Source of the DNA: Bacteroidales bacterium UBA5219
Lineage (GTDB): Bacteria > Bacteroidota > Bacteroidia > Bacteroidales > ML635J-15
Reading direction: 5' to 3'
DNA: 64,000 nt
NCBI GenBank assembly: GCA_002412425.1
Contig: DHVB01000049.1
Span: 74,401-138,400, forward strand
This document shows, piece after piece, positions 8,091 through 54,418 of this stretch. Within the stretch, counting starts at the first letter, position 1; the number at the start of each line of letters is the position of its first letter. The position numbers were made by a program, and so were the translations under genes. The notes under the pieces are model-generated. The model was given only the letters and a program-made list of their open reading frames with translations, was not told the DNA's origin and did no database searches.

Positions 8091-8139
8091 ATGTTGCAAC
8101 AAAATAATTATTATGGTATTTGAATAAATTGGCATTGTT
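8091..8139 (+). repeat. Direct-repeat module ATGTTGCRACAAAA...AAATTGGCATTGTT, copy C
   Basis: ATGTTGCAACAAAATAATTATTATGGTATTTGAATAAATTGGCATTGTT. Both ends match 11390-11454, with an internal deletion of about 17 nt. Confidence 0.7.
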
Positions 8140-8196
8140 GTAAAATCAACGCATGTGTTGATTCTACAACATGCTATATAATTTATTAAAAATCAA

Positions 8197-8253
8197 ACTT
8201 TCGACTTTCGACTTTTAACACTTCAACTACGTTCAGTGCATCGCCTTTAACTG
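8197..8253 (-). repeat. 57-nt dispersed repeat, copy 1 (contains the antiporter stop codon)
   Basis: The reverse complement reads CAGTTAAAGGCGATGCACTGAACGTAGTTGAAGTGTTAAAAGTCGAAAGTCGAAAGT. It is 54/57 identical to 17575-17631. Confidence 0.9.
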
Positions 8254-10406
8254 TTTTGTTCTTCTTCTTCAGATTTAACAAAAATCTTCCCTATCCCCTT
8301 TCCGATATTTTCTATAGCCTCAATACCTTTTGTCAATGGATTATTTGCAAGGTCGTCATACTGAGCTATAGAGCCTTCTATTTGCTGTGGGAAAATTACA
8401 ATTCTGTTATATTCAGAATAATATCTTTCTATTTTGCTGAAAATATTTTCAAAATATGGCACATAAGAAAACGAATTTCTTCTTGCCGATGCAACAATCA
8501 TAAGGTCGTCTTTTTCAATATATCTTGCTAAAATTAAAAAATCTTCCCATTCGCTAAACTCGCTAAACTCGATTTTTACATTAAATTTATTCTTTTTTAC
8601 GAGAGTTTTTAGGCTTTTATCAACTTCTTCGGTGCCAAAATGAAGTATTTGTGCCGACAGTTCCGAAGCAAGTTTAAGCACTTTTTCTGTCCACAATTTA
8701 AAACCTTTTTCTTTATTTGCTAAATGAGGTGTAACTAAAATAATCCTTTTATTGGCAACAAAAGCATTTTCAAGAGAAGTAACAAAAACGTTTTTATTTC
8801 CCGAATAAATAATTTTATTCACTCTCTCTCCAGCTAGTTTATTGATAATGCCAGCTTTACCGGGCCAACCAAGGATTAGAATATCTGCCATCATTTCTTT
8901 TGACACGCGTGAAATTCCACTAACGACATTATAGTCAATGCTTGTAATTGCGTTTACTTCTACTTCGGCAGCAGCGCCATATTTTATAAAATCTTCTAAT
9001 TTCTCTTTTGTTTTTAAAAGATTTTGCTCAGCATTAGAATCATTTTGAATAATTGATAAAAGAGATATTGGTCTTGATGATTTTAAGTTTTTTATCAATA
9101 CTGCAAACTCTAAAAGCTTTGGCACAGAAGCTAAGTTGGCAACTGGTATAAGTATATGCTCGGCAAATTTATTATAAGCTTTTTCACCAATTTGACTATC
9201 TTCTTCGGTTAAAGCCAAAGTTTTAGCTGCTCTTTCGGTTACAAATGAAGCTATTATACAAGAAACTAAAATTAGAATAATTGTACCGTTAAGAATATTG
9301 TCGTCTAAAATTCCTATTCTATAGCCCACTAAAATTACTGCCAAAGTTGCGGCTGCGTGTGAAGTTGACAAGCCAAAAATTAATTGTCTTTGAGTTCCAG
9401 AATATCTAAAAATTACTTGAGTTAAAAAAGCTGCTATCCATTTTCCAAAAACAGCACCAACAATCAAAACTCCAGCAACAATAGCTGCACCCCAACCTTG
9501 AACAACAACGCTTACATCTACTATCATTCCCACCGAAATTAAAAAGAAAGGAATAAACAAAGCATTTCCGCTAAATTCTATTCTATTCATCAAAGCAGAT
9601 GTTTTTGGAATTATAGGATTCAGAGCTAAACCAGCAACAAAAGCCCCAATAATTGGTTCTAAACCACTTATTTCGGCTAAGAAAGCTGCAAAAAACAAAA
9701 CTGATAAAGCAAATATAAAATGAGCATGTTTTTCGCTTTCTAATTTTGAGAAAAACCATCTCGCAACTTTTGGAACAAGGAAAAACATGATTATTAAAAA
9801 CAAAACAAAACAAATTCCCAATCTAATAAAAAACTCTTGGTCTAAGCTACCTTGTGTATTTCCAATTATAATGGCTAAAATCAACAAAACAGCAGTATCG
9901 GTAAAAATTGTACCACCTACAGTTACAGCAACAGCTTCGTTTTTAGTTACGCCAAGTTTGCTAACTATAGGATAAGCAACCAAAGTGTGAGTAGCAAACA
10001 TGCTTGCGGTCAACACACTTGCATTAATGCCATAGCCCAAAACATAATGACACAAAGCATAGCCTATTGCAAATGGAAAAATAAAAGTAAACACACCAAA
10101 GGTTAAACTTTTATATTTATTCATTTTAAATTGAGCCAAATTTAGCTCCAAACCAGCAACAAACATTATATATAGCAAACCTATGGTAGAGAATAGCTCT
10201 ATAGCACTATTATTGGCTATAATATTAAAGCCATAAGGACCGATAATTATACCAGAAATTATTAATCCTATTATTCCGGGAATTTTGAACCTTTGCAATA
10301 AAATTGGCGAAAGTAAAATTATAAAAAGAATAACAGAAAACACTAAAATAGGATTACTCAAAGGAAGAGTAAATTCTGCTAATAACTCGCTAAAAAATTC
10401 TTGCAT
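8247..10406 (-). CDS. Cation:proton antiporter (CPA family) with C-terminal cytoplasmic USP-like regulatory region
   Basis: About 400 aa of 11-13 TM helices typical of Na+/H+ or K+/H+ exchangers, followed by about 300 aa of soluble domain. The stop codon lies inside repeat copy 8197-8253. Confidence 0.85.
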   Translation of the reverse strand: MQEFFSELLAEFTLPLSNPILVFSVILFIILLSPILLQRFKIPGIIGLIISGIIIGPYGFNIIANNSAIELFSTIGLLYIMFVAGLELNLAQFKMNKYKSLTFGVFTFIFPFAIGYALCHYVLGYGINASVLTASMFATHTLVAYPIVSKLGVTKNEAVAVTVGGTIFTDTAVLLILAIIIGNTQGSLDQEFFIRLGICFVLFLIIMFFLVPKVARWFFSKLESEKHAHFIFALSVLFFAAFLAEISGLEPIIGAFVAGLALNPIIPKTSALMNRIEFSGNALFIPFFLISVGMIVDVSVVVQGWGAAIVAGVLIVGAVFGKWIAAFLTQVIFRYSGTQRQLIFGLSTSHAAATLAVILVGYRIGILDDNILNGTIILILVSCIIASFVTERAAKTLALTEEDSQIGEKAYNKFAEHILIPVANLASVPKLLEFAVLIKNLKSSRPISLLSIIQNDSNAEQNLLKTKEKLEDFIKYGAAAEVEVNAITSIDYNVVSGISRVSKEMMADILILGWPGKAGIINKLAGERVNKIIYSGNKNVFVTSLENAFVANKRIILVTPHLANKEKGFKLWTEKVLKLASELSAQILHFGTEEVDKSLKTLVKKNKFNVKIEFSEFSEWEDFLILARYIEKDDLMIVASARRNSFSYVPYFENIFSKIERYYSEYNRIVIFPQQIEGSIAQYDDLANNPLTKGIEAIENIGKGIGKIFVKSEEEEQNS

Positions 10407-10450: not shown

Positions 10451-10556
10451 TCAGTTAAAAGTTAAAAGAGTTTTTAGTGTTTAGTTTTTAGTGTTTAGTC
10501 TATTGCTCAAACGGATTTAACTTTACGAACTTTAAAACTTTTTAACTTTTAACTGA
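10451..10556 (+). repeat. Mosaic word-doublet element with 18-bp terminal inverted repeats
   Basis: TCAGTTAAAAGTTAAAAG (10451-10468) faces CTTTTTAACTTTTAACTGA (10538-10556). The interior has GTTTTTAGTGTTTAG x2 and AACGGATTTAACTTTACGAACTTTAAAAC. Confidence 0.85.
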
Positions 10557-10661: not shown

Positions 10662-10663
10662 TG

Positions 10664-10703
10664 ACGTTGCGACAAAATTAAATACTGTTTTAAAAATTAT
10701 TTT
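10664..10703 (+). repeat. Direct-repeat module, copy A (abuts the higA stop)
   Basis: ACGTTGCGACAAAATTAAATACTGTTTTAAAAATTATTTT. About 36/40 identical to 11390-11429. Confidence 0.75.
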
Positions 10704-10711
10704 GGAATTTT

Positions 10712-10990
10712 TTAAACTGGATTTATTTGTATTTGTCCACCAATTGCTCTTAAAATTTTCATAATTGTTTCAAATCTAGGATTAGAACCTTCTGATAATG
10801 CTTTATACAAACTTGATCTGCTTAATCCTGTTTCTTTAGCAATTTTTGTCATGCCCATTGATTTTGCGACATGTCCAATTGCTACAATTACGTCTGAGTC
10901 ATCACCTTCTGCTAAAACAGTATTAAGATATTCTGCAATCATCTCATTACTGTCTAAATAATCTGCTATGTCAAATTTTGAGGTTTCCAT
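10712..10990 (-). CDS. higA: Addiction-module antidote protein, HigA family (HTH)
   Basis: 92 aa. Conserved N-terminal DIADYLDSNEMIAEYLN and the HTH segment GMTKIAKETGLSRSSLYKALS. Begins 5 nt downstream of the toxin gene. Confidence 0.8.
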   Translation of the reverse strand: METSKFDIADYLDSNEMIAEYLNTVLAEGDDSDVIVAIGHVAKSMGMTKIAKETGLSRSSLYKALSEGSNPRFETIMKILRAIGGQIQINPV

Positions 10991-10995
10991 TATAT

Positions 10996-11295
10996 TTATT
11001 CTTTAAGTTTTTTCAAAATATTTTTAGCTTTATTTATGTCTTTCTGCTGAGTTGATTTTTCTCCACCAATGAGTAAAATAATAATTTTCCCATCTGATTC
11101 TTTAAAATATATTCTATATCCTTTAGCATAGTCAATTTTTAGTTCCCTAATTCCATCACCAACATGTTTACAATCTCCAAAATGTTCATCTTCTTCAATC
11201 TTTTGAATGCGAAACAATATTATGGCTTTTGCTTTTAAGTCTCTTAATTTTCTTAGCCACTTATCGAAATCAGATGTCTTATAAATTATATACAT
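10996..11295 (-). CDS. higB: Addiction-module killer protein (HigB-like, RelE/ParE superfamily)
   Basis: About 99 aa from the ATG at 11295 (MYIIYKTSDFDKWLRKL...GDGIRELKIDYAKGYRIYF...IILLIGGEKSTQQKDI). Toxin-first order is typical of higBA. Confidence 0.8.
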   Translation of the reverse strand: MYIIYKTSDFDKWLRKLRDLKAKAIILFRIQKIEEDEHFGDCKHVGDGIRELKIDYAKGYRIYFKESDGKIIILLIGGEKSTQQKDINKAKNILKKLKE

Positions 11296-11324
11296 ACATT
11301 TCTCCAAACGTCTCCATTCGGATA

Positions 11325-11380: not shown

Positions 11381-11389
11381 TACAGATAG

Positions 11390-11454
11390 ATGTTGCGACA
11401 AAAATAGACACTGTTTTAAAAATTATTTTTGATTTTAAATAAATTGGCATTGTT
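11390..11454 (+). repeat. Direct-repeat module, copy B (upstream of the higB promoter)
   Basis: ATGTTGCGACAAAAATAGACACTGTTTTAAAAATTATTTTTGATTTTAAATAAATTGGCATTGTT. Confidence 0.75.
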
Positions 11455-11511: not shown

Positions 11512-11603
11512 TCAGTTAAAAGTTAAAAGTTAAAAAGTTAAAAGAGGCTGACGCGTCTATAGCATGAACGGATTTAACTTTATGAACTTTAAAAACTTTT
11601 AAC
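11512..11603 (+). repeat. Mosaic word-doublet element
   Basis: TCAG(TTAAAAG)x4, then GAGGCTGACGCGTCTA, then AACGGATTTAACTTTATGAACTTTAAAAACTTTTAAC. Shares its left and right modules with 10451-10556 and its centre with 43993-44074. Confidence 0.85.
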
Positions 11604-12577
11604 TATTTTATCGCTTCGATAGAAAATAGAAACCCCTTATGAATAGGATTAAGCTTATCTTCCCACAATGCAGGGCTAATGCTTTGGAAAGCTTGAGTAA
11701 AATAGACTTCAGAAAATCCAAGATTTTTTATATATGCAAACAATTCTTCTTTTGAGAAATAGTCTGCATTATGCTGATATGATTCTTTTTTATTTTCGTC
11801 AACGAAATTTAAAACGTTTTTATAAAAAGTTTCCACATTTCCTGTATCACAGTCGTTTAGGCTTGCTCTTAAATCGGGAGATTTTGCATACAAATTATCC
11901 ATAGCTGCTACGGCGTTATGGTAAAGAAAAGTATTTTCCGAATTAAAAACTAATTCTTCTGAGTTTACCAAACTTTTTATAACATATTCGTTTTTATCGT
12001 TAAATGTGGCTTTAACTCTGCCTTTATGATTTTTTATAAAATTATTTAATTTTTCTTTTGACTCTCTACATTCAAATGGTGCTTTTGGAGTAATTAAATG
12101 ATTTTTATAAAGCTTGTATGAATAATCATAACAATGAACTTTTGAGTGAAAAACTCCACCTTTTTTCAAAATCCTATATGCTTCTTTGCATAAATTTTTA
12201 GTAGCATCAATTGATATATGTTCTATTACAAAAGAATTAAAAACAACTTCGGCATGATTATCTGGTAAAGGTATTGGAGCTAAAGATTCCAAATCATAAA
12301 ATATATCTATTCCTTCTTTGCTATATTTACTTGCTTCTAAGTCGATATATGTCCATATATCATATTTGCTTCGTTGAGAACCTGCACCTATATTATAAAA
12401 TCTCTTTTCTTTTAAACTCTCTTCGCTATAAACACTGTGAATATATTGCTCTAAGAAATTTATCTCCATCAATTTTTGCTTTACAAAAGGAATTCTTGAA
12501 AAAAATATTTCAAAAAATTTCCTAAAAAACTTGGAATGCTTTATAAGAGCAATACTTACAAATCTTATTTTACTCAT
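11603..12577 (-). CDS. Putative class I SAM-dependent methyltransferase-like protein
   Basis: 324 aa. Weak motif I (FYNIGAGSQ) and a Methyltransf_11-like post-I region (VVFNSFVIEHIS...EAYRILKKGGVF). The start is uncertain, with an alternative Met 36 codons in. Confidence 0.45.
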   Translation of the reverse strand: MSKIRFVSIALIKHSKFFRKFFEIFFSRIPFVKQKLMEINFLEQYIHSVYSEESLKEKRFYNIGAGSQRSKYDIWTYIDLEASKYSKEGIDIFYDLESLAPIPLPDNHAEVVFNSFVIEHISIDATKNLCKEAYRILKKGGVFHSKVHCYDYSYKLYKNHLITPKAPFECRESKEKLNNFIKNHKGRVKATFNDKNEYVIKSLVNSEELVFNSENTFLYHNAVAAMDNLYAKSPDLRASLNDCDTGNVETFYKNVLNFVDENKKESYQHNADYFSKEELFAYIKNLGFSEVYFTQAFQSISPALWEDKLNPIHKGFLFSIEAIK

Positions 12578-14926: not shown

Positions 14927-14934
14927 TAAATTTG
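14927..14934 (+). promoter_or_regulatory. Candidate -7 box (TAAATTTG) for the transglutaminase-like gene
   Basis: Exact TAnnTTTG, 20 nt before the ATG at 14955. Confidence 0.35.
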
Positions 14935-14954
14935 TGTTTTTATATTTAAAGTTT

Positions 14955-17633
14955 ATGAGAAATTTAGTTTTTAGTTTTCTTATCCTTTTTATGTTTTCAT
15001 CTTGTTTAAAAAGGGTTGAAGTTATTGAACCAAGTCAGTTTGAGTTAAATTATAACGACAAACTTGCCTTTGCAGAGGCAATAGGAAGTGATTTTTTTGA
15101 AAAATTAGAAAATTACAAATCCGACAGTTTAGTGTATCAAGATTTACAATATCTGTTTACCTACATGCCACTTAGTGATTTTGCGGATTATGATTTTGAG
15201 TTCTTTTTAAATCAAGTAAAATATGCACATTTAATAAAAGAAACTTTTCCTTGGGCAAAAGATATTCCGCAAGATATTTTTAGACATTACGTTTTACCTC
15301 ACCGAGTTAACAACGAAAACTTAGACACTGCTCGCATGGTTTTTTATCGTGAACTTAAAGACAGACTGCTTCCTTTAAATTTAACTGCCGAAGAAGCTGC
15401 TTTGGAAGTAAACCATTGGTGTCACGAAAAAGTAATTTATAAACCTACTGATGCAAGAACAATTTCTCCTCTTGGTGCTGTTCGTTCTGGCTTTGGTCGC
15501 TGTGGCGAAGAAAGTACTTTTACTGTTACAGCATTAAGAGCTGCGGGCATTCCTGCACGACAAGTTTACACGCCACGCTGGGCACATACAGACGACAACC
15601 ACGCTTGGGTAGAAGTTTGGATTGATGGAGAATGGAAATATCTTGGAGCTTGCGAACCACTACCCAGACTAAATAGGGGTTGGTTTACTGTGTCTGCAAC
15701 AAGAACAATGTTAGTGCACACAAAACAGTTTGGACAAGATGATGAAGAAAGTTCAAACTACCTTGGAAGTAATGCAAATTATACTTGGGTAAATGCTATG
15801 AAAACTTATGCTCCAACAAAAAATTTAATAATACTTGTTGTAAATAAAAACAATATGCCTGTTTGGAATGCTGAAGTAAGATTTCAATTATATAATTATG
15901 CAGAAATGTACCCATTGCATACTGCCAAAACAAATATTAATGGAATGGCAAAATTTACAACAGGATACGGTAGTTTAGAAGTTTCTGTAAGCTACAAAGA
16001 CAAAACAATTAGTAAAACAATAAATCCACAAGATGAAAACATAATTACACTAAATATTGATACAGACCCAAAATTTCCAGCAGAAAATGTTGTGTATTAT
16101 CCACCAGTAGCAGGCGAAAACCACATAATCGATCCTGAGGAAGAAAAACTAAATAACGAAAGACTAAAACAAGAAGATAAAATTAGAGCTAACAACGAAA
16201 GTTCGTATTACAACCAGTCTAAAACAAAAGATTTTATAAAAGCATTTGACTATCCCGAAAGTGTAGCAGAAATTCTTATTGGTAGCAAAGGAAATTGGAT
16301 GGAAATAGAAGCTTTTTTAATAGAAGCAAGCTATAAAAATTGTAAAAATGAAGCTCTAGCACTTCTTACTGAATTATCAGAAAAAGATTGGAGAGATACA
16401 AAAAAGGAAATTTTATCTAAACATTGCGAATTGGCTATTAAACACAGAAACAGCAATTTAGCTGATAGTATATTCAATAAGTATGTGCTTAACCCACGAA
16501 TACATTTTGAACTATTAACAAATTACAGACCTGCCATTTTAGAAAGTTTAACCGATGAAAACATAAAAAACTTTAAATCAAATCCTGAAAAAATATATCA
16601 ATACATTTCAGAAAATATTAAAACACAATTTAATATTAATGGCAAAAATATTGATGTTCAAGACTTTAATAATTACAACGTAAGTATTACGCCACTTGGT
16701 GTAAATAAAGTTAAACATGCTGACCCATTGTCGCTTAAAATTTATACTGTTGCTTTTTGTCGAAGCTTAGGTATTCCTGCACAAATAAATTTAGCAAGCA
16801 ATTTTGCACAATATTTTCACAATAATGAATGGGTAGATTTTAATTTTGATAAAGCCAAAGTTGAAAAAGCTAAATTATTCTTCACAAATCCCGATACTAC
16901 AAGAGATCTAAAATATAGAGTTCATTTTGCAATAGCAAGATTAGAATCAGGATTTTTCAACACTGTTGACTTGGGCTGGGAAATTCCAATTAGCGATTTT
17001 TCTGACGGAATAGAAGTTTTGGACGGAAAATACATGCTTCTTACTGCATATAGAAATTCTGACGAAAGTGTTAGTGTAAATAGAAAATATTTTGATTTGA
17101 AAGCAAACGAAACAAAAACAATAGAAGTTACAATACCTGAAGATAATAGTATTTCACTAAATATTAAAGCCTTCGTTCATGGCAATTTAACTGATAATCA
17201 AACAAATAGCCTCATCGACAGTAAATTAATTTGCAAAGAAAATACTGCAACTGCTTTTTGTTGGATAAATCCTACGCAAGAACCATCAAAACACATAATT
17301 AGAGATATTAATTTAGGTTTAAATAACTTAAAAAACAACAAAATAAATGTTGTTTTTATAACTGATGGTTCTGAAATTCAAGGACTTTCTAAAGAAATCC
17401 CAACTTATACTGACAAAAATTTTGAATTGCTAAATAAAAACTCAGCTTGCTCACTTAGTGCAAATAGCAATGTATTTCCAAATATAATGTTAGTTAGCAA
17501 TAATAATTGCATATTTTCAAGTAAGGGGTATATAATTAATGTTAGTGAGATATTAATTAATGAATGGAAAAAATCAGTTAAAAGCGATGCACTGAACGTA
17601 GTTGAAGTGTTAAAAGTTAAAAGTCGAAAGTAA
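14955..17633 (+). CDS. Transglutaminase-like (Cys-His-Asp core) lipoprotein
   Basis: Lipoprotein signal (LFMFSSC) from the ATG at 14955. Transglutaminase core [25 protein letters not shown]...[22 protein letters not shown]. The last 16 codons are encoded by repeat copy 17575-17631. Confidence 0.75.
17575..17631 (+). repeat. 57-nt dispersed repeat, copy 2 (encodes the last 16 codons of the transglutaminase-like gene)
   Basis: CAGTTAAAAGCGATGCACTGAACGTAGTTGAAGTGTTAAAAGTTAAAAGTCGAAAGT. Same orientation relative to its host gene as copy 1. Confidence 0.9.
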
Positions 17634-18316
17634 TGCGAATTGATATAATTACTGTTTTGCCCGAATTGATTGCTGGTCCGTTAGATTTGTCAATTATTAA
17701 AAAAGCAAAAGACAAGGGCATAGTAGAAATAAATATTCTCGATTTGCGAGAATATGGTTTGGGAAAATACAAACAAGTTGACGACTACCCATATGGCGGC
17801 GAAGCTGGAATGGTTTTAATGATTGAGCCTATATTTAATTTGATAGAAAAATTAAAGTCAGAAAGAAAATATGATTTGATTTTTTATACCTCACCTGACG
17901 GAAAACCTTGGACTCAAAAAGAAGCTAACAAAATAAGTTTACTCGAAAACATAATTATTTTGTGCGGTCATTATAAAGGAATAGACCAAAGAATAAGAGA
18001 ACACTTAATTGACGAAGAATATAGCATAGGCGATTTTGTACTAACAGGTGGTGAATTGGCTGCAGCAATGATGTGCGATAGTATTGTTAGACTTCTTCCT
18101 GGTGCTATAGGCGATGAACAATCTGCGTTAAGCGATTCTTTTCAAGATAATTTGTTAGCTCCACCAGTTTATACACGCCCCGAAGTTTTTAATAATTGGA
18201 AAGTTCCCGAAGTTTTGCTTTCTGGAAATTTTAAAAAAATTGAAGAATGGAAAGAAGAACAAGCTTATGAAAGAACTTTAAAACTTAGACCAGACTTATT
18301 AAAAAATGATGAGTAA
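17633..18316 (+). CDS. trmD: tRNA (guanine37-N1)-methyltransferase
   Basis: 227 aa. [22 protein letters not shown] and [12 protein letters not shown] motifs. The start overlaps the upstream stop (TAATG). Confidence 0.95.
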
Positions 18317-20319: not shown

Positions 20320-21489
20320 ATGTTAAATATTGCTTTATTTGGTCCTCCTGGAGCTGGAAAAGGAACTCAATCAAAAATTTTAATTGAAGAATATAATTTA
20401 TCCTACATTTCTACTGGTGAATTATTACGTAAAGAGATTAAAAATAAAACAAAATTAGGCTTAGAAGCTCAAAGTATTATTGCTGCTGGTGGTTTGGTTT
20501 CTGATGAAATTATTGTTCAAATTATTGAAAAAACAATTACAGAAAATCCCAATGCAAATGGTTTTTTGTTTGATGGTTTTCCTCGTACATATATTCAGGC
20601 TTATATACTCGAAGGTTTGATGATTAAATTAAACACCTCGTTAAATTGTTTGATAAGCTTAGCAGTTCCAGAAGAAGTTTCTGTTCAGCGTTTATTAGAA
20701 CGTGGTAGAACTTCGGGCAGAACAGACGATAACAAAACAGTTATTAGAAATCGATTAAACGAATATTACGAAAAAACAATACCTGTAATTAATTTTTACA
20801 AAGAAAAAGGAATTTTTTCAGAAGTTGACGGAACTCAATCTGTTGAGAATGTTAGAAAAGACATAAAAGCTATTGTTAAAAAAGAGTTGAGCAAACGTTT
20901 GTTAAATATTGTTTTATTTGGTTATCCTGGTTCTGGAAGAGGTTCGCAAGGCAGAGCTATTGCCAAAAAATACGGCTTAGAATATGTTGCTACAGGACCT
21001 ATGCTACACGAAGAAATTGAAAAAGGTAGCGAAATAGGAAAACAAATTAAAGATTTGTTTGACAATGGAAAACTAATTCCCGATGAGATTGTGGTTCCTT
21101 TGATTGAAAAGAAAATTGAAAATTCAAAAGGTGTAAAAGGTTTTATTTTTAAAGGTTTTCCTCGAACTCTTGTGCAATCCTATATTTTAGATGGCTTATT
21201 GAAAAAGCACTCTTCGTCAATTTCTAAAATTATTGAAATTGAAGTGCCTACTCTTGAATTAATTAAAAGATTAGACGAAAGAAGTAAAACTGAAAATCGC
21301 ATGCCTTATGACTCAAGTACTGCTAAAATTGTTCAAAGACTACAAGACCACCAAACCAAAACTGTTCCTGTTATAGAAAAATACAACGAATTGCACGGAG
21401 TTGTAAAAATTGACGGAATGGGCAGTTTCGACGAAGTTTTCAAAAGAATAAGTTTTGAAATCGAAAATGGATTCGAGAATCTGAAATAA
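20320..21489 (+). CDS. adk: Tandem-domain adenylate kinase (two complete short-type Adk domains in one polypeptide)
   Basis: Domain 1 (aa 1-190) has GPPGAGKGTQ, FLFDGFPRT and RGRTSGRTDDN. Domain 2 (aa 195-389) has GYPGSGRGSQ, FIFKGFPRT and RSKTENRMPYDS. Confidence 0.85.
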   Translation: MLNIALFGPPGAGKGTQSKILIEEYNLSYISTGELLRKEIKNKTKLGLEAQSIIAAGGLVSDEIIVQIIEKTITENPNANGFLFDGFPRTYIQAYILEGLMIKLNTSLNCLISLAVPEEVSVQRLLERGRTSGRTDDNKTVIRNRLNEYYEKTIPVINFYKEKGIFSEVDGTQSVENVRKDIKAIVKKELSKRLLNIVLFGYPGSGRGSQGRAIAKKYGLEYVATGPMLHEEIEKGSEIGKQIKDLFDNGKLIPDEIVVPLIEKKIENSKGVKGFIFKGFPRTLVQSYILDGLLKKHSSSISKIIEIEVPTLELIKRLDERSKTENRMPYDSSTAKIVQRLQDHQTKTVPVIEKYNELHGVVKIDGMGSFDEVFKRISFEIENGFENLK

Positions 21490-32369: not shown

Positions 32370-32601
32370 GTTTTAACACTTCTGAAACACCTTGAAAACT
32401 TGCTGGTTTAACAAATCCGAGCGAGCGTCATGGGTGTTGAAGCGAGCAGAGTGAGCAAAGCGAAGTCTGCGAAGCAAACCCAAGCGAGCAAAGCGAGCAA
32501 ATAATTCTTAATTATCGGGTGTTGAGCGAAGCCGAGACACAATTCTTAATTCTTAATTCATCTTCATACTCAACACTAAAAACTCTTTTAACTTTCAACT
32601 G
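32370..32601 (-). repeat. Mosaic word-doublet element (long variant), filling the glycogen-gene/folP convergent gap and the folP 3' end
   Basis: The minus strand starts CAGTTGAAAGTTAAAAGAGTTTTTAGTGTT, matching 10452-10480. It continues with GAATTAAGAATTAAGAATT, GGGTGTTGA(A)GCGA(A)GC x2 and degenerate GCGAGCAA(A) tandem words. Confidence 0.8.
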
Positions 32602-33426
32602 TTTTTTTGTATTGCAATAAAGTTTTACCACTTCCTTAGCTTCTTTAACATCGTGAACTCTTAAAATATGAGAGCCTTTCATTAGAGCTATTGTATTTAA
32701 AACTGTAGTGCCATTTAATGCTTCTAAAGGAGTAATTCCTAAAGTTTTCCAAATCATTGTTTTTCGTGAAAGTCCAGCTAAAATAGGAAGTTCAAACACT
32801 TTAAATCTTTCTAAATTATTTAAAAGTTCAAAATTTTGTGCTACGGTTTTTGCAAATCCAAATCCTGGGTCAACAATTATATCATTAACGCCCATAGAAT
32901 TTAGTTGTGCAATTTTTTCTGAAAAGTAAAAAATAATATCTTCGATAAAATTTTCATAATCAGTTTTTTCTTGCATGTTTTCTGGTGTGCCGCGCATGTG
33001 CATAAGAATATATGGAACATCTAAGTCGGCAACAGTTTCAAACATTTTTTTATCAAATTCGCCACCGCTAATATCGTTTATTATGTCTATTCCAAAATCT
33101 TTTACTGCTCGTTTTGAAGTTTCGGCATACACTGTGTCAAGCGAAAAAATAATATTAGAATATTTTTTATTAACTAAATTTAAAACTGGTTCCAAAAGTT
33201 GCCATTCATCTTCTTGTTTTAAAATAGTTAAACCTGGACGAGTAGAAACTGCTCCAATATCAATCATATCAGCACCATCTGCGAGCAATTTTTCAATACG
33301 TTTGTCGGCATCTTCAACTTGAGGAAAAATACTTCCACTATAAAAAGAATCTTTACTAAGATTTAAAATCCCCATCACTAAAGGCGTATCAACACTTAAC
33401 AATTCAGATTTTACTTTTATAAACAT
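32512..33426 (-). CDS. folP: Dihydropteroate synthase
   Basis: DIGAVSTRPG, FSLDTVYAE, INDISGG and DPGFGFAKT motifs. The last 25-30 codons (KKQLKVKRVFSVEYEDELRIKNCVSASLNTR) are encoded by repeat element 32370-32601, so the native C-terminus is uncertain. Confidence 0.9.
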   Translation of the reverse strand: MFIKVKSELLSVDTPLVMGILNLSKDSFYSGSIFPQVEDADKRIEKLLADGADMIDIGAVSTRPGLTILKQEDEWQLLEPVLNLVNKKYSNIIFSLDTVYAETSKRAVKDFGIDIINDISGGEFDKKMFETVADLDVPYILMHMRGTPENMQEKTDYENFIEDIIFYFSEKIAQLNSMGVNDIIVDPGFGFAKTVAQNFELLNNLERFKVFELPILAGLSRKTMIWKTLGITPLEALNGTTVLNTIALMKGSHILRVHDVKEAKEVVKLYCNTKKQLKVKRVFSVEYEDELRIKNCVSASLNTR

Positions 33427-41986: not shown

Positions 41987-43259
41987 AGCTAATATATCTA
42001 TTTGCGTTATTATATGTATAATTCTAATACAAGCTTGCGTTGGAGTACAGCCTCAAAACCAGACTTCACGTCCAAGTTCGTATAAATATAATTTTGCCTC
42101 TCGTTACAACCCTTCTTCAGCAGAAATACAGCCCGAAGTAAGAATTTTTGCAAAATCTAAAACCGAAGCTTTAGTTTTTTACAAAATTCCTACTAACGAA
42201 ATCCAAAAAACTGTAAACACTATTGATGATGATGCTAGACTAATAGTAAAATATACTTTAAGAAATGCTGATAATTTCGCCATTGTTGATAGTGGAACGG
42301 TGGTTAACATGATTAATCTTAAACAAACAAATGAAGAGTTTAATTCATATTTTACAGTAAATACTCCAAATCAAGAAAATTATAAAATAATTATCAGTAT
42401 TTACGGCGAAAAAGCTAATACAGGGAAACGACTACTTGAAGACATTGAACTAAAGCAAAATAATGAAGTATTTTTCTTTCCAAAAATTTTGAAAAAAAAC
42501 GAAGAAGAAGTTTTATACACTAACTTTATTAACTCAAATAACACATACAAACTTAGTAGCAATATTTGTGGACCTATTGTAAAAATTGATTATTACAAAA
42601 TAACCGAACATGTACATTTACCACCTTATTATATTGCTCCTTCTCAAAATGTTGACGCAACACCAGATTCCACATTTACATATACATTAAGTGACAGTAT
42701 AAAATTTAATAAAAAAGGAATTTATTTTATCCGCGAACAAAATCAAAGTTCTGGTGGACTATGCTTAATTAATATTGACGACTATTTTCCTGAAATTAAA
42801 ACTGTGGAATCAATGTTAGAACCACTTAAACTACTAACTACCAATAAAGAATATAAAGAGATTGCAAATTCAGAAAATTTAAAACAAGCTATAGATTATT
42901 TTTGGCTCACTAAATCTCAAAGTCAGAAATTTGCAAAAGAACAAATACGGGTTTTTTACAATAGAGTAGCTTTGGCAAATAAATATTTTAGCGAAAATAA
43001 AGAAGGTTGGAAAACAGATAGAGGAATGATTTACATAATGTTTGGACCACCATCAATTATAAATATCAGCACAAACCAAGAAGAGTGGTTTTATGGCGAA
43101 GATCCTGATGTCGCTGGAATATTTTTTCTATTCACTAGAACTGAGACACCTAGCTATAATAAATCTTGGATTTTACATAGAGACGCAAATTACCAAACTG
43201 TTTGGGCTCAAGCACTACAGATTTGGAGAAGTGGAAAAATATTTACAATTACAAATTAA
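41979..43259 (+). CDS. GWxTD domain-containing lipoprotein
   Basis: Lipoprotein signal (IILIQAC). Diagnostic KEGWKTDRGMIYIMFGPPS (GWxTD) motif near the C-terminus. Confidence 0.8.
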   Translation: MNKANISICVIICIILIQACVGVQPQNQTSRPSSYKYNFASRYNPSSAEIQPEVRIFAKSKTEALVFYKIPTNEIQKTVNTIDDDARLIVKYTLRNADNFAIVDSGTVVNMINLKQTNEEFNSYFTVNTPNQENYKIIISIYGEKANTGKRLLEDIELKQNNEVFFFPKILKKNEEEVLYTNFINSNNTYKLSSNICGPIVKIDYYKITEHVHLPPYYIAPSQNVDATPDSTFTYTLSDSIKFNKKGIYFIREQNQSSGGLCLINIDDYFPEIKTVESMLEPLKLLTTNKEYKEIANSENLKQAIDYFWLTKSQSQKFAKEQIRVFYNRVALANKYFSENKEGWKTDRGMIYIMFGPPSIINISTNQEEWFYGEDPDVAGIFFLFTRTETPSYNKSWILHRDANYQTVWAQALQIWRSGKIFTITN

Positions 43260-43263
43260 AAAA

Positions 43264-44007
43264 ATGGAAAATTTTATTTTTGGACTACATCCTGTAAACG
43301 AAGCAATTAAATCTGGAAAAGAAATTGATAAAGTTTTGGTTAAAAAAAACTTAACTGGAAATATTGCACTAAAATTAGTTTCAGAAATTCGTCAACAAGG
43401 AATTACTATACAATATGTGCCTCAAGAAAAACTTGATAAAATTTGTAAACACAATCATCAAGGCATAATTGCTTATGTGTCGCCAATTAAATACCAAAAT
43501 TTAGAAGAAGTTATCATCAAAATTCAAGATGAAAATAAAACTCCATTAATAATAATTTTAGATGGAGTTACAGATGTAAGAAATTTTGGAGCTATTGCTC
43601 GCTCTTGCGAATGTGCGGGAGCTTCTGCAATAGTAATTCCAACAAGTGGCAGTGTAAGAATTAGCGATGAAGCAATTAAAACCTCTGCTGGAGCATTGTA
43701 TAATATTCCAATTTGCAAAGTTGAAAATTTAATAGATGCTGTTTTGCTTTTAAATCAAATGAATATTGAAGTTGTTGCTGTTACGGAAAAAGCCGAAAGA
43801 TTAATTTACGAACTCGACCTAACAACAGCTTGTGCTTTAATTTTAGGTGCCGAAGACAAAGGAATTTCAAACTCTCTTATAAAACGAGCCGACAAAAAAG
43901 CCAAAATTCCATTATATGGAAAAACATCTTCTTTAAATGTTTCAGTGTCTGCGGCTTTGGCAGTTTACGAAGCTATACGACAAAGAATGAATTCAGTTGA
44001 AAGTTAA
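43264..44007 (+). CDS. rlmB: 23S rRNA (guanosine-2'-O)-methyltransferase, SpoU/TrmH family (RlmB-like)
   Basis: The start at MENFIFGLHPVNEAIKSG (ATG 43264) avoids a 167-nt overlap with the upstream gene. SpoU motifs LDGVTDVRNFGAIARS, LILGAEDKGIS and SLNVSVSAALAVYE. The stop codon lies inside repeat 43993-44074. Confidence 0.85.
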   Translation: MENFIFGLHPVNEAIKSGKEIDKVLVKKNLTGNIALKLVSEIRQQGITIQYVPQEKLDKICKHNHQGIIAYVSPIKYQNLEEVIIKIQDENKTPLIIILDGVTDVRNFGAIARSCECAGASAIVIPTSGSVRISDEAIKTSAGALYNIPICKVENLIDAVLLLNQMNIEVVAVTEKAERLIYELDLTTACALILGAEDKGISNSLIKRADKKAKIPLYGKTSSLNVSVSAALAVYEAIRQRMNSVES

Positions 44008-44074
44008 AAGTTGAAAGTTAAAAGAGGCTGACGCGTCTAACAAAGTGCGACTTTCGACTTTTAACTTTTAACTC
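43993..44074 (+). repeat. Mosaic word-doublet element forming a 23-24-bp stem, exactly filling the rlmB/Trx-PKD convergent gap
   Basis: TCAGTTGAAAGTTAAAAGTTGAAAGTTAAAAG, then AGGCTGACGCGTCTAACAAAGTGCGA, then CTTTCGACTTTTAACTTTTAACT. The arms pair with only G-U wobbles. It contains the rlmB stop (44005-44007) and abuts the minus-strand gene's stop (44073-44075). Confidence 0.85.
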
Positions 44075-46193
44075 ATCTTATAATGCTGATCTTTTCCGTT
44101 TTAATCTTACCTTTAGTAAATATTCTAGCGTAATAAATTCCTGAAGCAATTCCGTTAGTATTAAATTCAATTACTTCGCTTCCAGCTTCAGCAAATTTCA
44201 TTTGTAGCATTTTTCCTGTTCTGTCAAAAATTTCAACAAAATCGCCTTTATCGAAAGACAATGAGTTCACAATAAACAAATTATCTCCGCATGGATTTGG
44301 ATAAACTGTTATTCCAGTTTCAATTTCTTCGTCTTCAATTCCAACAAGGCAAGTCATTGGTCTTATTCCTGTAGATGTTGAAATTTGATAAGCAGAAGGA
44401 GAAGAATACCATTCTTCGTTTTTATATACAAATAAAGTATTGTCGTTGCCATGTCCTCGATTTGGAGCCATTCCCACTACAAATTCGTCGCCAGCAGCAT
44501 AGTTAATTGAATATCCTAAATAAAATGGACCATCAACTTTAAGAGGCTCGTCAAACATTATTACTTGAAAATAATTTTGTCTCAAAGTTCTCAAAAGCAC
44601 TTTTTGACTTGATAAAACAGTTGTAGGTTTTGGGTCTGCACCATCCCAAGTAATAAATCTAATATAAGCATTATCCGAACCATATGACAATTTCATTACA
44701 GGAACAATAATTCCTCTTATCTCATTAAAAGTATGAAAATCATAATAATCGGCATACATGCTAATTCTATCACTATTTTGTCCGCCATAATAACCTGTCA
44801 TTCCATTTATTTGCATAGCTATTGGTTGTTCGCCTTGTTTAAAATTACCTATTGTATCGCAAACTTCGCCAACAAAAGAGTCGTAAACAACAATATAATC
44901 TTTCTTGGTTAACATCGAAGAACCATTAATATTTCCAACATTTAGAGTAACGTCAAAAAAGCCTGTGTTTTGATAACGAACTCCATTTGGTTGTAATTGA
45001 GTATTAGAGCTTGATGGTTCTCCTCCTTCAAAATACCAAGACCAAAACATTGGATTATTTGTTGATAAATCCTCAAAAAAGACTGGAGTATCACGTTTAA
45101 TCAAGCGATTAGAAGTTGTAAAATTGGCAACAGGAGCATCTGGACCAACTTCTGGAATAACTCTAATGTAATTTTCAATTAACAAAGTATCATAGCCTTG
45201 AGAGTTACGAACAATTAACTGAACATTATATTCACCTGGTGTATTATAAACAATATTTTGAGGATTTTGTGCTGCAGAATTTGCAGGCAAACCACCTTCA
45301 AACTCCCATTTCCATTGGAATGGAAAATCCCAACTTAGGTCTGTAAAGTTTACAGAATTACCAACAATAACAATTACTTGATCAGCAGTAAACCAAGCTG
45401 TTGGAGTAGTATCAGCAATCTCATAAACATGAACATATTTAGTTTTAACTATCTCATCACTATTTCCAAATTCATTTGCAACTTTAAGTTTTACCTTATG
45501 ATAACCAGGAACATTATAAATAATTTCAGGTGGATTTTGACCATTAAAACTATCTGGAGTGCCGTTTTCAAACTCCCAAAGCCAAGTTGCAATAGGATTT
45601 TGCGATAAGTCAGAAAAAATAACTCCTGTATTTACAGGAAGCAACAAAGGGTCGCCAGAAAAATCAGCAATGGGCCAATCTTCTGGACAAGCATTTCTGT
45701 TAATTCCAATTTCTTGAAGACCTTGAACAGTATTTATATCAACTTCTTGGTCATCATCCCAAATAACACTTCTATCTGGTTTAATTAAAATTTTAGTTGG
45801 ATAAGCTTCTATTCCATAATAGTTAACGACAGCACCTCCATGCCCCTCAACAGCACTACAAAGAGGGAAAATAGTATTATGTTCATCTCTATAATTAATA
45901 GCTATTTCATTGGTTACACCCTGAGAAAAAAGACCAAGAACTACTAATTCAAATTCATTACAACCAAAACTTGAATATATATTATTTATCGTCGGGACAG
46001 ACGCAATACAGCCAGATCAACCAGCTAATATAAATTCTATATAAACATGTTTACCTGCATCTAAATAAGTGAAAAGATTATGCTCAACACCATCGAGATC
46101 TGTTATAGTAAAATCCACAGCTTGAGTTGGTTGTTGCGCAAAACTTACGTATGACAAGGCTAACAAAGATAATAAACAAAATAACTTTTTCAT
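44073..46193 (-). CDS. Thioredoxin-fold (TlpA/redoxin-like) + 3x PKD + T9SS sorting-domain protein with one in-frame TGA at the CxxC position (candidate selenoprotein; alternatively a nonsense pseudogene)
   Basis: ORFs 46017-46229 and 44073-45647 are in the same frame (offset 1944 = 3x648). Hand translation of 45648-46016 shows no stop. The reading is MKKLFCLLSLLALSYVSFAQ...GKHVYIEFILAG-TGA-SGCIASVPTINNIY...IEAYPTKILIKPDRSVIWDD, followed by three PKD repeats and the CTD VYPNPCGDNLFIV...GIYYARI. Confidence 0.55.
45990..46003 (-). promoter_or_regulatory. Candidate SECIS-like stem-loop downstream of the in-frame UGA
   Basis: The mRNA reads UGA-UCUGGCUGUAUUG-CGUC-UGUCCC-GACG. This is a 4-bp GC-rich stem with a 6-nt loop containing GU. 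The loop starts 17 nt after the UGA, and weak AU/GU pairing can extend the lower stem. Confidence 0.3.
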
Positions 46194-53710: not shown

Positions 53711-54289
53711 ATGAAACCAAAAGTTTTAATATTTTCGGCACCTAGTGGTTCAGGAAAGACAACAATAGTAAATCATTTGCTTTCTAATCCAAAATTTAAT
53801 CTTAGTTTTTCTATTTCTGCCTGCACTCGCAAACCCAGAGGCGTTGAAGAACATGGCAAACATTATTATTTTTTATCAGCAGAAGAATTTAAGCAAAAAA
53901 TAGCAAATGATGAGTTTTTAGAATGGGAAGAAGTTTATGCAAATACTTTTTACGGCAGTTTAAAATCAGAAGTTGACAGGCTTACAAAACTAGGAAAAGT
54001 TGTTGTCTTTGATGTTGATGTAAAAGGTGGAATAAATATTAAAAATTTTTATGGAGAAAATGCCTTGTCGGTTTTTATTATGCCACCAAGCATTGAGGAA
54101 TTAGAACAAAGACTGATAAAACGTTCTACCGACCAACCCGAAGTTATTAAAACAAGAATTGAAAAAGCAAAATACGAAATGAGCTTTGCAAAAGAATTTG
54201 ATATAATCCTAACTAACAACGAATTACAAACAGCTCTTATAGAAGCAGAAAAAATTGTTGAGAAATTTTTGCAGGGTAAAAGTTTGTAA
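53711..54289 (+). CDS. gmk: Guanylate kinase
   Basis: SAPSGSGKTT P-loop, SACTRKPRGVEEHGKHYYF and EWEEVYANTFYGS. Confidence 0.95.
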   Translation: MKPKVLIFSAPSGSGKTTIVNHLLSNPKFNLSFSISACTRKPRGVEEHGKHYYFLSAEEFKQKIANDEFLEWEEVYANTFYGSLKSEVDRLTKLGKVVVFDVDVKGGINIKNFYGENALSVFIMPPSIEELEQRLIKRSTDQPEVIKTRIEKAKYEMSFAKEFDIILTNNELQTALIEAEKIVEKFLQGKSL

Positions 54290-54418
54290 AGTTGAATTAG
54301 TTACCATTCGCTCGATTTTCCCCACACAATCCTATTTCAGATTTTCCTGCACAACCCGCTCGCTCGGTTCAACTTTACGAACTTTATGAACTTTAAAAAC
54401 TTTACAAACTTTTAACTG
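54290..54418 (+). repeat. Mosaic word-doublet element filling the gmk/T9SS-cargo convergent gap
   Basis: CGCTCGCTCGG module (shared with 32370-32601 and 8078-8090), followed by AACTTTACGAACTTTATGAACTTTAAAAACTTTACAAACTTTTAACTG (shared with 10510-10556 and 11567-11603). Confidence 0.8.

Follow-up and report, generated by a model that had tools for sequence, protein, structure and literature searches.

Near-identical 57-nt repeats at two gene ends of an uncultured Bacteroidales bacterium as probable parts of strain-variable mosaic arrays

The 64,000-nt stretch of contig DHVB01000049.1 analyzed here (the window; 30.6% guanine plus cytosine (GC)) comes from an uncultured Bacteroidales, common in anaerobic digesters and fermenters, and carries a 57-nt repeat at the 3' ends of two genes. 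One is an antiporter gene (open reading frame (ORF) 8247-10406 on the minus strand, Pfam Na_H_Exchanger); the other is a transglutaminase-like gene (ORF 14934-17633 on the plus strand, Pfam Transglut_core) that is followed by trmD (tRNA_m1G_MT). Recomputation gave the same result as the original prediction: the reverse complement of 8197-8253 and the segment 17575-17631 are identical at 54 of 57 positions, the copies lie on opposite strands, and each is in sense orientation at the 3' end of its gene. Ungapped identity reaches 65 nt at 92% (8197-8261/17567-17631), and the window has exactly two occurrences of the 24-nt core GCGATGCACTGAACGTAGTTGAAG, whereas none of 100 dinucleotide shuffles contains it. 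The antiporter ends in ..EEEEQNS, with the TAA stop codon (8249-8247) falling within the first 10 nt of the element, and the transglutaminase-like ORF is translated across the entire element to a TAA (17631-17633) that overlaps the trmD ATG (17633-17635) in a TAATG junction. Both gene ends are thus as originally described, except that the element contributes 19 codons (SVKS...SRK) to the transglutaminase-like tail and not 16.

The 57-mer is a composite and not a discrete unit, and its ends are the points where two arrays cease to match. Read in heptamer phase, it consists of (i) a header, CAGTTAAAAG, (ii) a 25-nt module, referred to as E (CGATGCACTGAACGTAGTTGAAGTG), and (iii) two to three A-rich heptamers (TTAAAAG/TCGAAAG). 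The parts of the two copies are as follows; L numbers designate the loci, and X numbers the runs whose contigs were compared with the window.

8244-8253, minus strand: array header CAGTTAAAGG of the antiporter copy, which gives the last two codons and the TAA stop (8249-8247)
8219-8243, minus strand: module E CGATGCACTGAACGTAGTTGAAGTG of the antiporter copy, missing from contigs of runs X5 and X6, which have a gap of exactly 25 nt and 0 mismatches
8191-8218, minus strand: heptamer run after E, TTAAAAG TCGAAAG TCGAAAG TTTGATT, inside which L227 and L229 hold a 27-nt module, F
17575-17584, plus strand: array header CAGTTAAAAG of the transglutaminase-like/trmD copy, where protein homology to relatives ends (residue 879/880)
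17585-17609, plus strand: module E of the trmD copy, closed by stops in two frames, the third, open one being that of ORF 14934-17633
17610-17633, plus strand: heptamers TTAAAAG TTAAAAG TCGAAAG and then TAA, the TAA at 17631-17633 overlapping the trmD ATG at 17633-17635

The scaffold of the arrays is made of the A-rich heptanucleotides AGTTAAA, AGTCGAA and AGTTGAA and begins CAGTTAAAAG; E lies in phase between heptamers and in the same orientation as its array. Across loci, E combines in varying order with three further modules: F (GAACCGAGCTTGCGAGCTCACCGAAGGTAAAG; 27 nt), which has a 5-bp stem with a UNCG-type loop (hairpin GAGCT-TGCG-AGCTC with a tetraloop, read by eye), B (GAGGCTGACGCGTCTATTGCTTCGCAGAGTTCGCAAGCTC...), and G, with TTGCCCTACGGGCAA-type hairpins (GCCC-GCAA-GGGC with a tetraloop, read by eye). 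E itself has only an interrupted 7-bp hairpin, and its folding energy is no better than that of shuffles.

A search with the 20-nt core of E in a species-dereplicated genome collection (one genome per species) gave 37 matches in 25 stretches. Thirty-three of these are in the sister metagenome-assembled genome (MAG) DAONZU01, which is 92-97% identical in nucleotide sequence to the window where the two overlap, and two share a 2.8-kb contig that was assigned to a Salinivirgaceae MAG; the remaining two, in Burkholderia and in a Flavobacteriaceae genome, are isolated and without an array, and we take them as chance matches. At least 35 near-identical copies of E are present in the sister MAG, and a metagenome scan found E in at least 97 further stretches; the repeat is therefore not confined to two sites without polymorphism, which would have spoken against a dispersed element. 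Every real copy is preceded by a header or by heptamers in the same orientation, 33 of the 39 real copies have the same 25 nt throughout, and variation is most frequent at a position in the loop of the small hairpin. The left neighbour of E ends AAAG or AAGG in 38 of the 39 (TTAAAAG in 31), and the right neighbour varies, being heptamers or one of the modules F, B and G. E is also found as tandem pairs spaced 32 nt apart, i.e. E plus one heptamer, with 0, 1 or 2 copies of E at orthologous sites and up to three per array at other loci. Neither the 65-mer nor the E core has a match in viral contigs (IMG/VR), phage records or plasmid collections, so that a phage or plasmid vector is unsupported. 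Rfam gave no family at the gathering score in the whole window and only a chance let-7 match in the repeat-rich stretches at E-values up to 1, and a tRNA/tmRNA search of the window gave none.

Several observations bear on the upkeep, range and assembly of these modules. Near position 1452 of L252, a copy of E has an internal 5-nt deletion between GCTATGCACT and CGTAGTTGAAGTG; this copy is decayed, and E is thus not always kept intact. In L183 (JALOAQ010000075, 195-300), a header-array with an F-like module is found in a relative that lacks the element at both orthologous gene ends (75-85% amino acid (aa) identity), and the family, but not E, therefore extends beyond the species. Summed contig depth over E is 100-600x that of the flanks, and contigs end there (17573-17614 and 8210-8253; X1, X5, X6, X12, X26, X27). 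Short-read assemblies break at E, which is also abundant in RNA contigs.

Between near-identical strains the arrays are hypervariable by whole units. At the antiporter end, the 719-aa protein is identical in the window, L227, L228, L229 and the X5/X6 alleles (not in L039). The window and L228 have the arrangement header-E-TTAAAAG-TCGAAAG-TCGAAAG, to which L227 and L229 add the 27-nt F module; the X5/X6 contigs lack exactly 25 nt (E), with no mismatch over 300-700 nt and 1 nt of microhomology, and the sister genome L039 (98% aa identity) has four heptamers and no E. At the trmD junction, five array alleles lie beside identical TrmD. The window and six other assemblies share header-E-2 heptamers, L233 and L236 have an extra heptamer before E (+7 nt), L234 has one heptamer fewer after E (-7 nt) and two base changes in E, and L230 has a base change in E. 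X5/X6 have no E there, owing to a 32-nt skip (17577-17608; E plus one heptamer) with 8 shared bases and 0 mismatches in the flanks, and the array of the sister genome L001 is without E and has CAAAA upstream. At a third site common to the sister genome (54422), E is missing in the window and present in L029, and at least 12 further orthologous gene ends among the loci compared vary in the number of E copies (0, 1 or 2) or in module set.

The steps between strains with identical flanking genes are 7 nt (heptamer), 25 nt (E), 27 nt (F) and 32 nt (E plus heptamer). Clean 25-nt presence/absence is seen between L234 and X5/X6, where the L234 trmD allele equals the empty allele plus exactly 25 nt, between L310/L317 and L302, between L309 and L335, and at the antiporter site; at one site the difference is 24 rather than 25 nt. 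In comparisons with orthologs, homology ceases at the first base of the element, and there is no target-site duplication at E. Of the small mobile or recombinogenic element in the original prediction, the multi-copy, polymorphic and gene-end-associated character stands; the 57-mer, however, is no discrete element, being made up of a 25-nt module set in a heptanucleotide array.

Position relative to gene ends was determined for 32 E-bearing arrays with a located array start, using ORFs of at least 100 codons and random positions in the same loci as control. Sixteen of the 32 begin between -15 and +21 nt from an ORF stop, against 1.8% of random positions; the commonest start is 1-3 nt past the stop codon, and in two more arrays the ORF continues 19 or 27 codons into the array. 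In most copies E is located after the stop codon, and the host genes are unrelated housekeeping genes. The earlier wording that the element targets gene ends therefore holds as a statistical enrichment, but not as a mechanism of targeting. At one locus (L013, 3650-5050), composite repeats enclose a PD-(D/E)XK (PDDEXK_3) gene together with a small ORF, and the arrays face gene starts; the composites there also contain 9-nt arrays (ACCACAAAAG ACACAAAAG..).

Three units of AGTTAAA, and their complement, have TAA in all three frames. As (AGTTAAA)n contains TAA every 7 nt, there is a stop in each frame within 21 nt on both strands, and an ORF entering an array therefore ends quickly. One entry frame stops in the header (antiporter), a second inside E, and the third crosses E to the next heptamers (transglutaminase-like); because E is open in one frame only, the same DNA gives a stop in one gene and a tail in the other. 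Because the arrays vary by whole units, the transglutaminase-like protein ends differently between strains: among strains with identical TrmD there are five C-termini, including ..KKSVKS and ..KKQNQLKVKSRK, and the stop ranges from 51 nt upstream of the trmD ATG (L233, L236) through 12 nt upstream (X5/X6) to 11 nt past it (L234, which overlaps trmD by 11 nt). The called products measure 865-899 aa, a spread to which start calls contribute along with stops. Homology to all relatives ends at residue 879/880, that is, at the element's first base; a relative at 75% identity ends in ..KKYKLNYS, without the element and without trmD downstream, and relatives of the antiporter (78-85% identity) likewise lack the element and differ in their C-termini. 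The tail is thus not ancestral sequence conserved at the amino acid level, orthologs at 75-85% aa identity being without it. Given that tails differ between near-identical strains and that relatives lack the element, the protein tail is an incidental by-product of the reading frame, and the proposed remodeling of C-termini does take place, but as a side effect only.

Both 57-mers are single-armed and fold no better than shuffles (z +0.2), and a promoter/terminator scan gave nothing terminator-like, such as a GC stem with a U-tract, at either copy. The RNA data are assembler contigs of metatranscriptomes, not reads. An RNA contig of run X27 (with loose ends at 8197 and 8252) spans the gene end and E and continues into trmD, showing that the element is transcribed through into this gene. 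Downstream of the antiporter array and outside the repeat lies a separate structure.

8137-8170, minus strand: hairpin with a 14-bp stem, GTTGTAGAATCAAC-ACATGC-GTTGATTTTACAAC

A 143-nt fold with this hairpin has z -4.3, the hairpin is conserved in L039 and L227-L229, and it is probably the real 3'-end structure of the antiporter transcript.

Locating AAAGT at 7-nt spacing across the window identified eight family sites with 3-5 heptamer units each (AGTTAAA, AGTCGAA, AGTTGAA, AGTTCGT..), nearly all of which begin CAGTTAAAAG. Members besides the two 57-mers include the following.

10452-10555: palindromic member composed of header and heptamers, AGTTTTT/AGTGTTT heptamers and an inverted array (z -6.2)
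11513-11605: palindromic member with module B GAGGCTGACGCGTCTA, whose right end gives the TAG stop of ORF 11603-12577 (minus strand)
32512-32601, minus strand: member translated by the folP-like ORF 32512-33426 (minus strand) into a 29-codon tail, QLKVKRVFSVEYEDELRIKNCVSASLNTR and stop, read by hand
43994-44074: palindromic member filling the gap between the convergent genes 43093-44007 (plus strand) and 44073-45647 (minus strand) (z -6.7)
54279-54418: member between the convergent genes 53711-54289 (plus strand) and 54422-56422 (minus strand), with a different module set, including an E, in the ortholog L029

The three sites at 10452-10555, 11513-11605 and 43994-44074 are long hairpins (array, loop, inverted array) that fold far better than shuffles (z -4.1 to -6.7), and a hairpin of array and inverted array may act as a bidirectional terminator. 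The first separates the end of a HigA-like gene from the antiporter start, with GC-rich hairpin modules continuing to ~10660; the second additionally carries an E in L227, L229 and L312; at the third, both stop codons of the convergent pair lie in or against the arms. The folP-like protein, in which Pterin_bind spans residues 18-258 of 304, ends in a tail encoded by a repeat of AGTTTTT/AGTGTTG and AGAATTA heptamers and is a second case of a protein tail made from repeat DNA.

Several neighbouring features were recorded in the same region. A HigB/HigA-like toxin-antitoxin pair (10712-11307, minus strand; Gp49 and dnstrm_HI1420/HTH) is bracketed by a 48-nt direct repeat (88%; 10663-10710 and 11389-11436) and by two mosaic elements, and together with these brackets resembles a small inserted cassette. 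The small ORFs between the two window elements were considered as a mobilizing enzyme and ruled out, since they are this ordinary HigB/HigA-like pair. A 37-nt direct repeat (84%, core AATAAATTGGCATTGTT) occurs downstream of the antiporter hairpin (8103-8139) and upstream of the toxin gene (11418-11454). Elsewhere in the window, ORF 20320-21489 (plus strand) encodes 389 aa with two tandem adenylate-kinase domains and is a fused double adenylate kinase; its DNA repeats at 579-nt spacing.

Combining the unit structure with the allele series, we favor as rather probable a model in which the two 57-mers are alike parts of non-coding, hypervariable mosaic arrays and in which modules are copied from array to array on heptamer homology. 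In this model, the heptamers common to all arrays would provide short homology for strand switching: (i) by template switching or short-tract gene conversion, a nascent strand or repair tract would move to another array, take up a copy of a module there and return, (ii) slipped-strand mispairing would then add or remove heptamers (7 nt) and E-plus-heptamer units (32 nt), and (iii) arrays would persist at gene ends because they are harmless there, translation being stopped in every frame, while deletion bias would draw them up to or into the stop codon. The arrays may in addition have some 3'-untranslated-region role. Several points weigh against this model. At two junctions, the base adjoining E is kept specific to the recipient (AAAGG before E at the antiporter, AAAAA before E at the 11513 site), whereas homology-guided copying predicts frequent conversion of the neighbours of E, so that the kept bases fit a precise, enzyme-made junction somewhat better. 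Similarly, microhomology at the clean 25-nt indel is limited to 1 nt, and the tight spacing to stop codons exceeds what harmlessness alone explains. The copying itself we infer from the sequences.

Alternatively, E, and likewise F and B, could be tiny non-autonomous mobile units moved by a trans-acting enzyme, e.g. of the HUH/Y1 kind (IS200/IS605, or the type associated with repetitive extragenic palindromic (REP) sequences and their tyrosine transposases (RAYTs)), with strand-specific insertion 3' of AAAG, no target duplication, and heptamer arrays (units ending AAAG) as landing pads. Such a process would account for the nearly constant left flank with a variable right flank and fixed orientation, for the clean presence or absence of 25 nt at several sites, where microhomology does not exceed 1 nt, for the recipient-specific bases retained at the junction and, as after a recent burst, for the near-identity of the copies. 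Nevertheless, we consider it unlikely, though with an appreciable residual chance. A phmmer search with an IS200 TnpA probe found no Y1 transposase in 1.28 Mb of redundant clade loci, a partial sampling of the genomes; E has one weak hairpin where known elements of this type need hairpins at both ends; a 25-nt unit is below the size of any known mobile unit; and one site differs by 24 nt. Moreover, tandem E-E arrays and +/-7 nt steps are expected from slippage, and homology-guided copying between arrays would yield the same picture of flanks, orientation and indels.

We assign very little probability to a Correia-type miniature inverted-repeat transposable element (MITE), with terminal inverted repeats and target-site duplication, moved to gene ends by a DDE transposase (e.g. 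of the IS630 family). In its favor, part of the family is palindromic with arms formed by heptamer arrays, one E array in L318 has an IS630-family transposase directly beside it, and the 32-nt unit of the trmD site lies between 8-nt direct repeats, GTTAAAAG. However, the 57-mer is without an inverted arm, family members vary widely in length and internal modules, and the flanks of the palindromic members (AAAT../..ATTT, AATT../..ATCT, ACAT../..TTTT) show no TA or other duplication; the 8-nt repeat is the array's own heptamer and is missing at the antiporter site. Tc1-family inverted repeats start CAGT..; an IS630/Tc1-like reading was rejected, as no TA duplication flanks the arrays. An integron attC reading, suggested by the likeness of the core GTTRRRY to GTTAAAA, was likewise rejected, on inspection alone: the order of the arms is wrong, and they are perfect tandem arrays. 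As for L318 itself, the insertion sequence (1-1125) has two ORFs, an HTH part and a DDE part, ends against an array with an altered header, TAGTATTAAAAG, and may have inserted into the TA-rich header.

Two functional explanations were weighed as well. That the 57-mer itself is a transcription terminator or an mRNA 3'-end stabilizer would fit its location directly past stop codons, the strong folding of its palindromic relatives and the heptameric repeats of Xanthomonas near stop codons, where transcripts often start or stop (PMC4692102). With neither 57-mer folding beyond shuffles or offering a GC stem plus U-tract, with the trmD copy lying within an operon and read through in RNA, and with the antiporter copy having its own separate hairpin downstream, we regard this function as improbable. 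Even less is to be said for selection of the element for a functional C-terminal peptide, or for a TAATG overlap that couples trmD translation, as proposed for mycobacterial interspersed repetitive units (MIRUs). It is true that, despite a net difference of 27 nt between their arrays, the window and L001 both stay in frame up to the TAATG overlap. Yet the overlap is lost in L233, L236 and X5/X6 and extends to 11 nt in L234, the tail varies between strains and is missing in relatives, and most copies of E follow the stop codon; the series of stop positions refutes this reading. Chance similarity or an assembly artefact, finally, has next to no probability: assemblers do break contigs at E (X1, X12), but the core is absent from all 100 shuffles, and the same E-bearing alleles recur in independent assemblies from several studies (L228, L231, L232, L235, L237-L239).

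The heptamer array has a wider distribution than E. The header-plus-array pattern CAGTTRAAAGTTRAAAGTYRAAAGT, with this heptamer alone counted, occurs in at least 111 stretches of the dereplicated genome set (loci L117-L226) and spans many phyla, including genomes with 60-71% GC. The taxa comprise Alloalcanivorax (L121, L126, L163, L184), Acidobacteriota (L119, L130), Holophagae, Gemmatimonadota (L146), Anaerolineae, Ignavibacteria, Cyanobacteria, Planctomycetales, Treponema and Patescibacteria. Among the arrays listed, 34 of 117 are paired with an inverted array no more than 300 nt away, in many cases with a GC-rich centre between the two, and in 23% an ORF stop lies 0-10 nt before the array, compared with 1.9% of random positions. 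When 1446 ORFs located up to 2 kb from arrays were compared all-against-all by blastp, the only families shared were common large ones, which argues that the arrays are not the ends of a cargo-carrying element. Given that the array is found in more than 110 stretches including high-GC genomes, and that numerous such arrays border GC-rich inserts and lie directly at stop codons, it could be speculated, against the odds in our judgment, that AGTTRAA arrays are landing pads past stop codons in many phyla at which an unknown enzyme inserts and excises 25-27 nt modules (E, F) directly after AAAG. If true, no smaller mobile DNA units would be known, and gene 3' ends would harbor a system resembling cassettes.

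For annotation, the arrays mean that fast-changing repeat DNA supplies the last codons and the stop of many genes in this Bacteroidales, so that predicted protein lengths differ between near-identical strains, and C-terminal 'extensions' from repeat DNA should not be taken as functional. The modules break short-read assemblies, and their unit-wise polymorphism could mark strains in the manner of variable-number tandem repeats (VNTRs). The arrays also offer a clean system for the study of heptanucleotide repeats at stop codons, in which near-identical natural strains differ by whole units only; since a dispersed module marks copying between arrays, existing metagenome series could yield the direction and rate of change.

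The arrays share traits with several known repeat systems. Escherichia coli bacterial interspersed mosaic elements (BIMEs) combine REP and linker motifs, and Neisseria intergenic mosaic elements (NIMEs) consist of RS units flanked by dRS3 repeats. As in these systems, several short module families occur here in variable order, separated by a short common repeat, and are extragenic, at gene 3' ends, in many copies per genome and strain-variable; in contrast, the common linker is a 7-nt tandem unit and not a 20-nt repeat or a REP palindrome, E is no convincing palindrome, and no link to a RAYT or to phage integration was found in the sequences searched. In pneumococcal BOX elements (boxB 45 nt) and mycobacterial MIRU-VNTRs (40-100 nt) the number of internal units varies between strains, and MIRUs lie between operon genes, overlapping stop and start codons. 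The variable number of E (0-2 at one site, up to three per array) and the TAATG junction of the window recall these elements, but the units here are shorter (25-32 nt), and the stop/start overlap, kept in the window and L001, is lost in three other alleles. With Correia elements and Rickettsia palindromic elements (RPEs), to which the repeat was first likened, it shares small size, multiple copies, lineage specificity and the ability to alter gene ends. The likeness goes no further: lacking terminal inverted repeats, a target-site (TA) duplication and a significant fold, the 57-mer is not Correia- or MITE-like, and unlike RPEs it is neither palindromic nor an in-frame insert within genes, the copies being at or after stops and the tails variable.

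The scaffold belongs to the arrays of heptanucleotide simple-sequence repeats (SSRs) near stop codons; intergenic heptanucleotide SSRs also include the short tandemly repeated repetitive (STRR) heptamers of cyanobacteria. According to Mrazek et al. 2007, as reported in PMC4679880, heptanucleotide repeats are the commonest long SSRs in bacteria, and they cluster at stop codons (PMC4692102, PMC4679880). Known examples are GGGAATC/GGGGA(T/C)T in Xanthomonas and Nostoc, where those of Xanthomonas are mostly transcribed and can form inverted pairs (PMC4692102), and TAACTGA arrays in Beggiatoaceae, Cyanobacteria and some Bacteroidetes, with strain indels in 7-nt steps (PMC4679880). The arrays described here resemble these SSRs in having few tandem 7-nt units per array, in being intergenic, on the coding strand and near or overlapping the stop codon, in forming potential stem-loops from inverted pairs and in strain indels of 7-nt steps; TAACTGA is, moreover, the complement of TCAGTTA, the start of the header. 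They differ in their heptamers (AGTTAAA/AGTCGAA/AGTTGAA) and in holding dispersed non-heptamer modules (E, F, B, G), which PMC4692102 and PMC4679880 do not describe. Literature searches with the heptamer arrays as sequence strings gave no match, and no description of a heptamer scaffold combined with dispersed modules was found. What is new here is, accordingly, the embedding of dispersed non-heptamer modules in heptanucleotide arrays, which gives rise to strain-variable mosaics.

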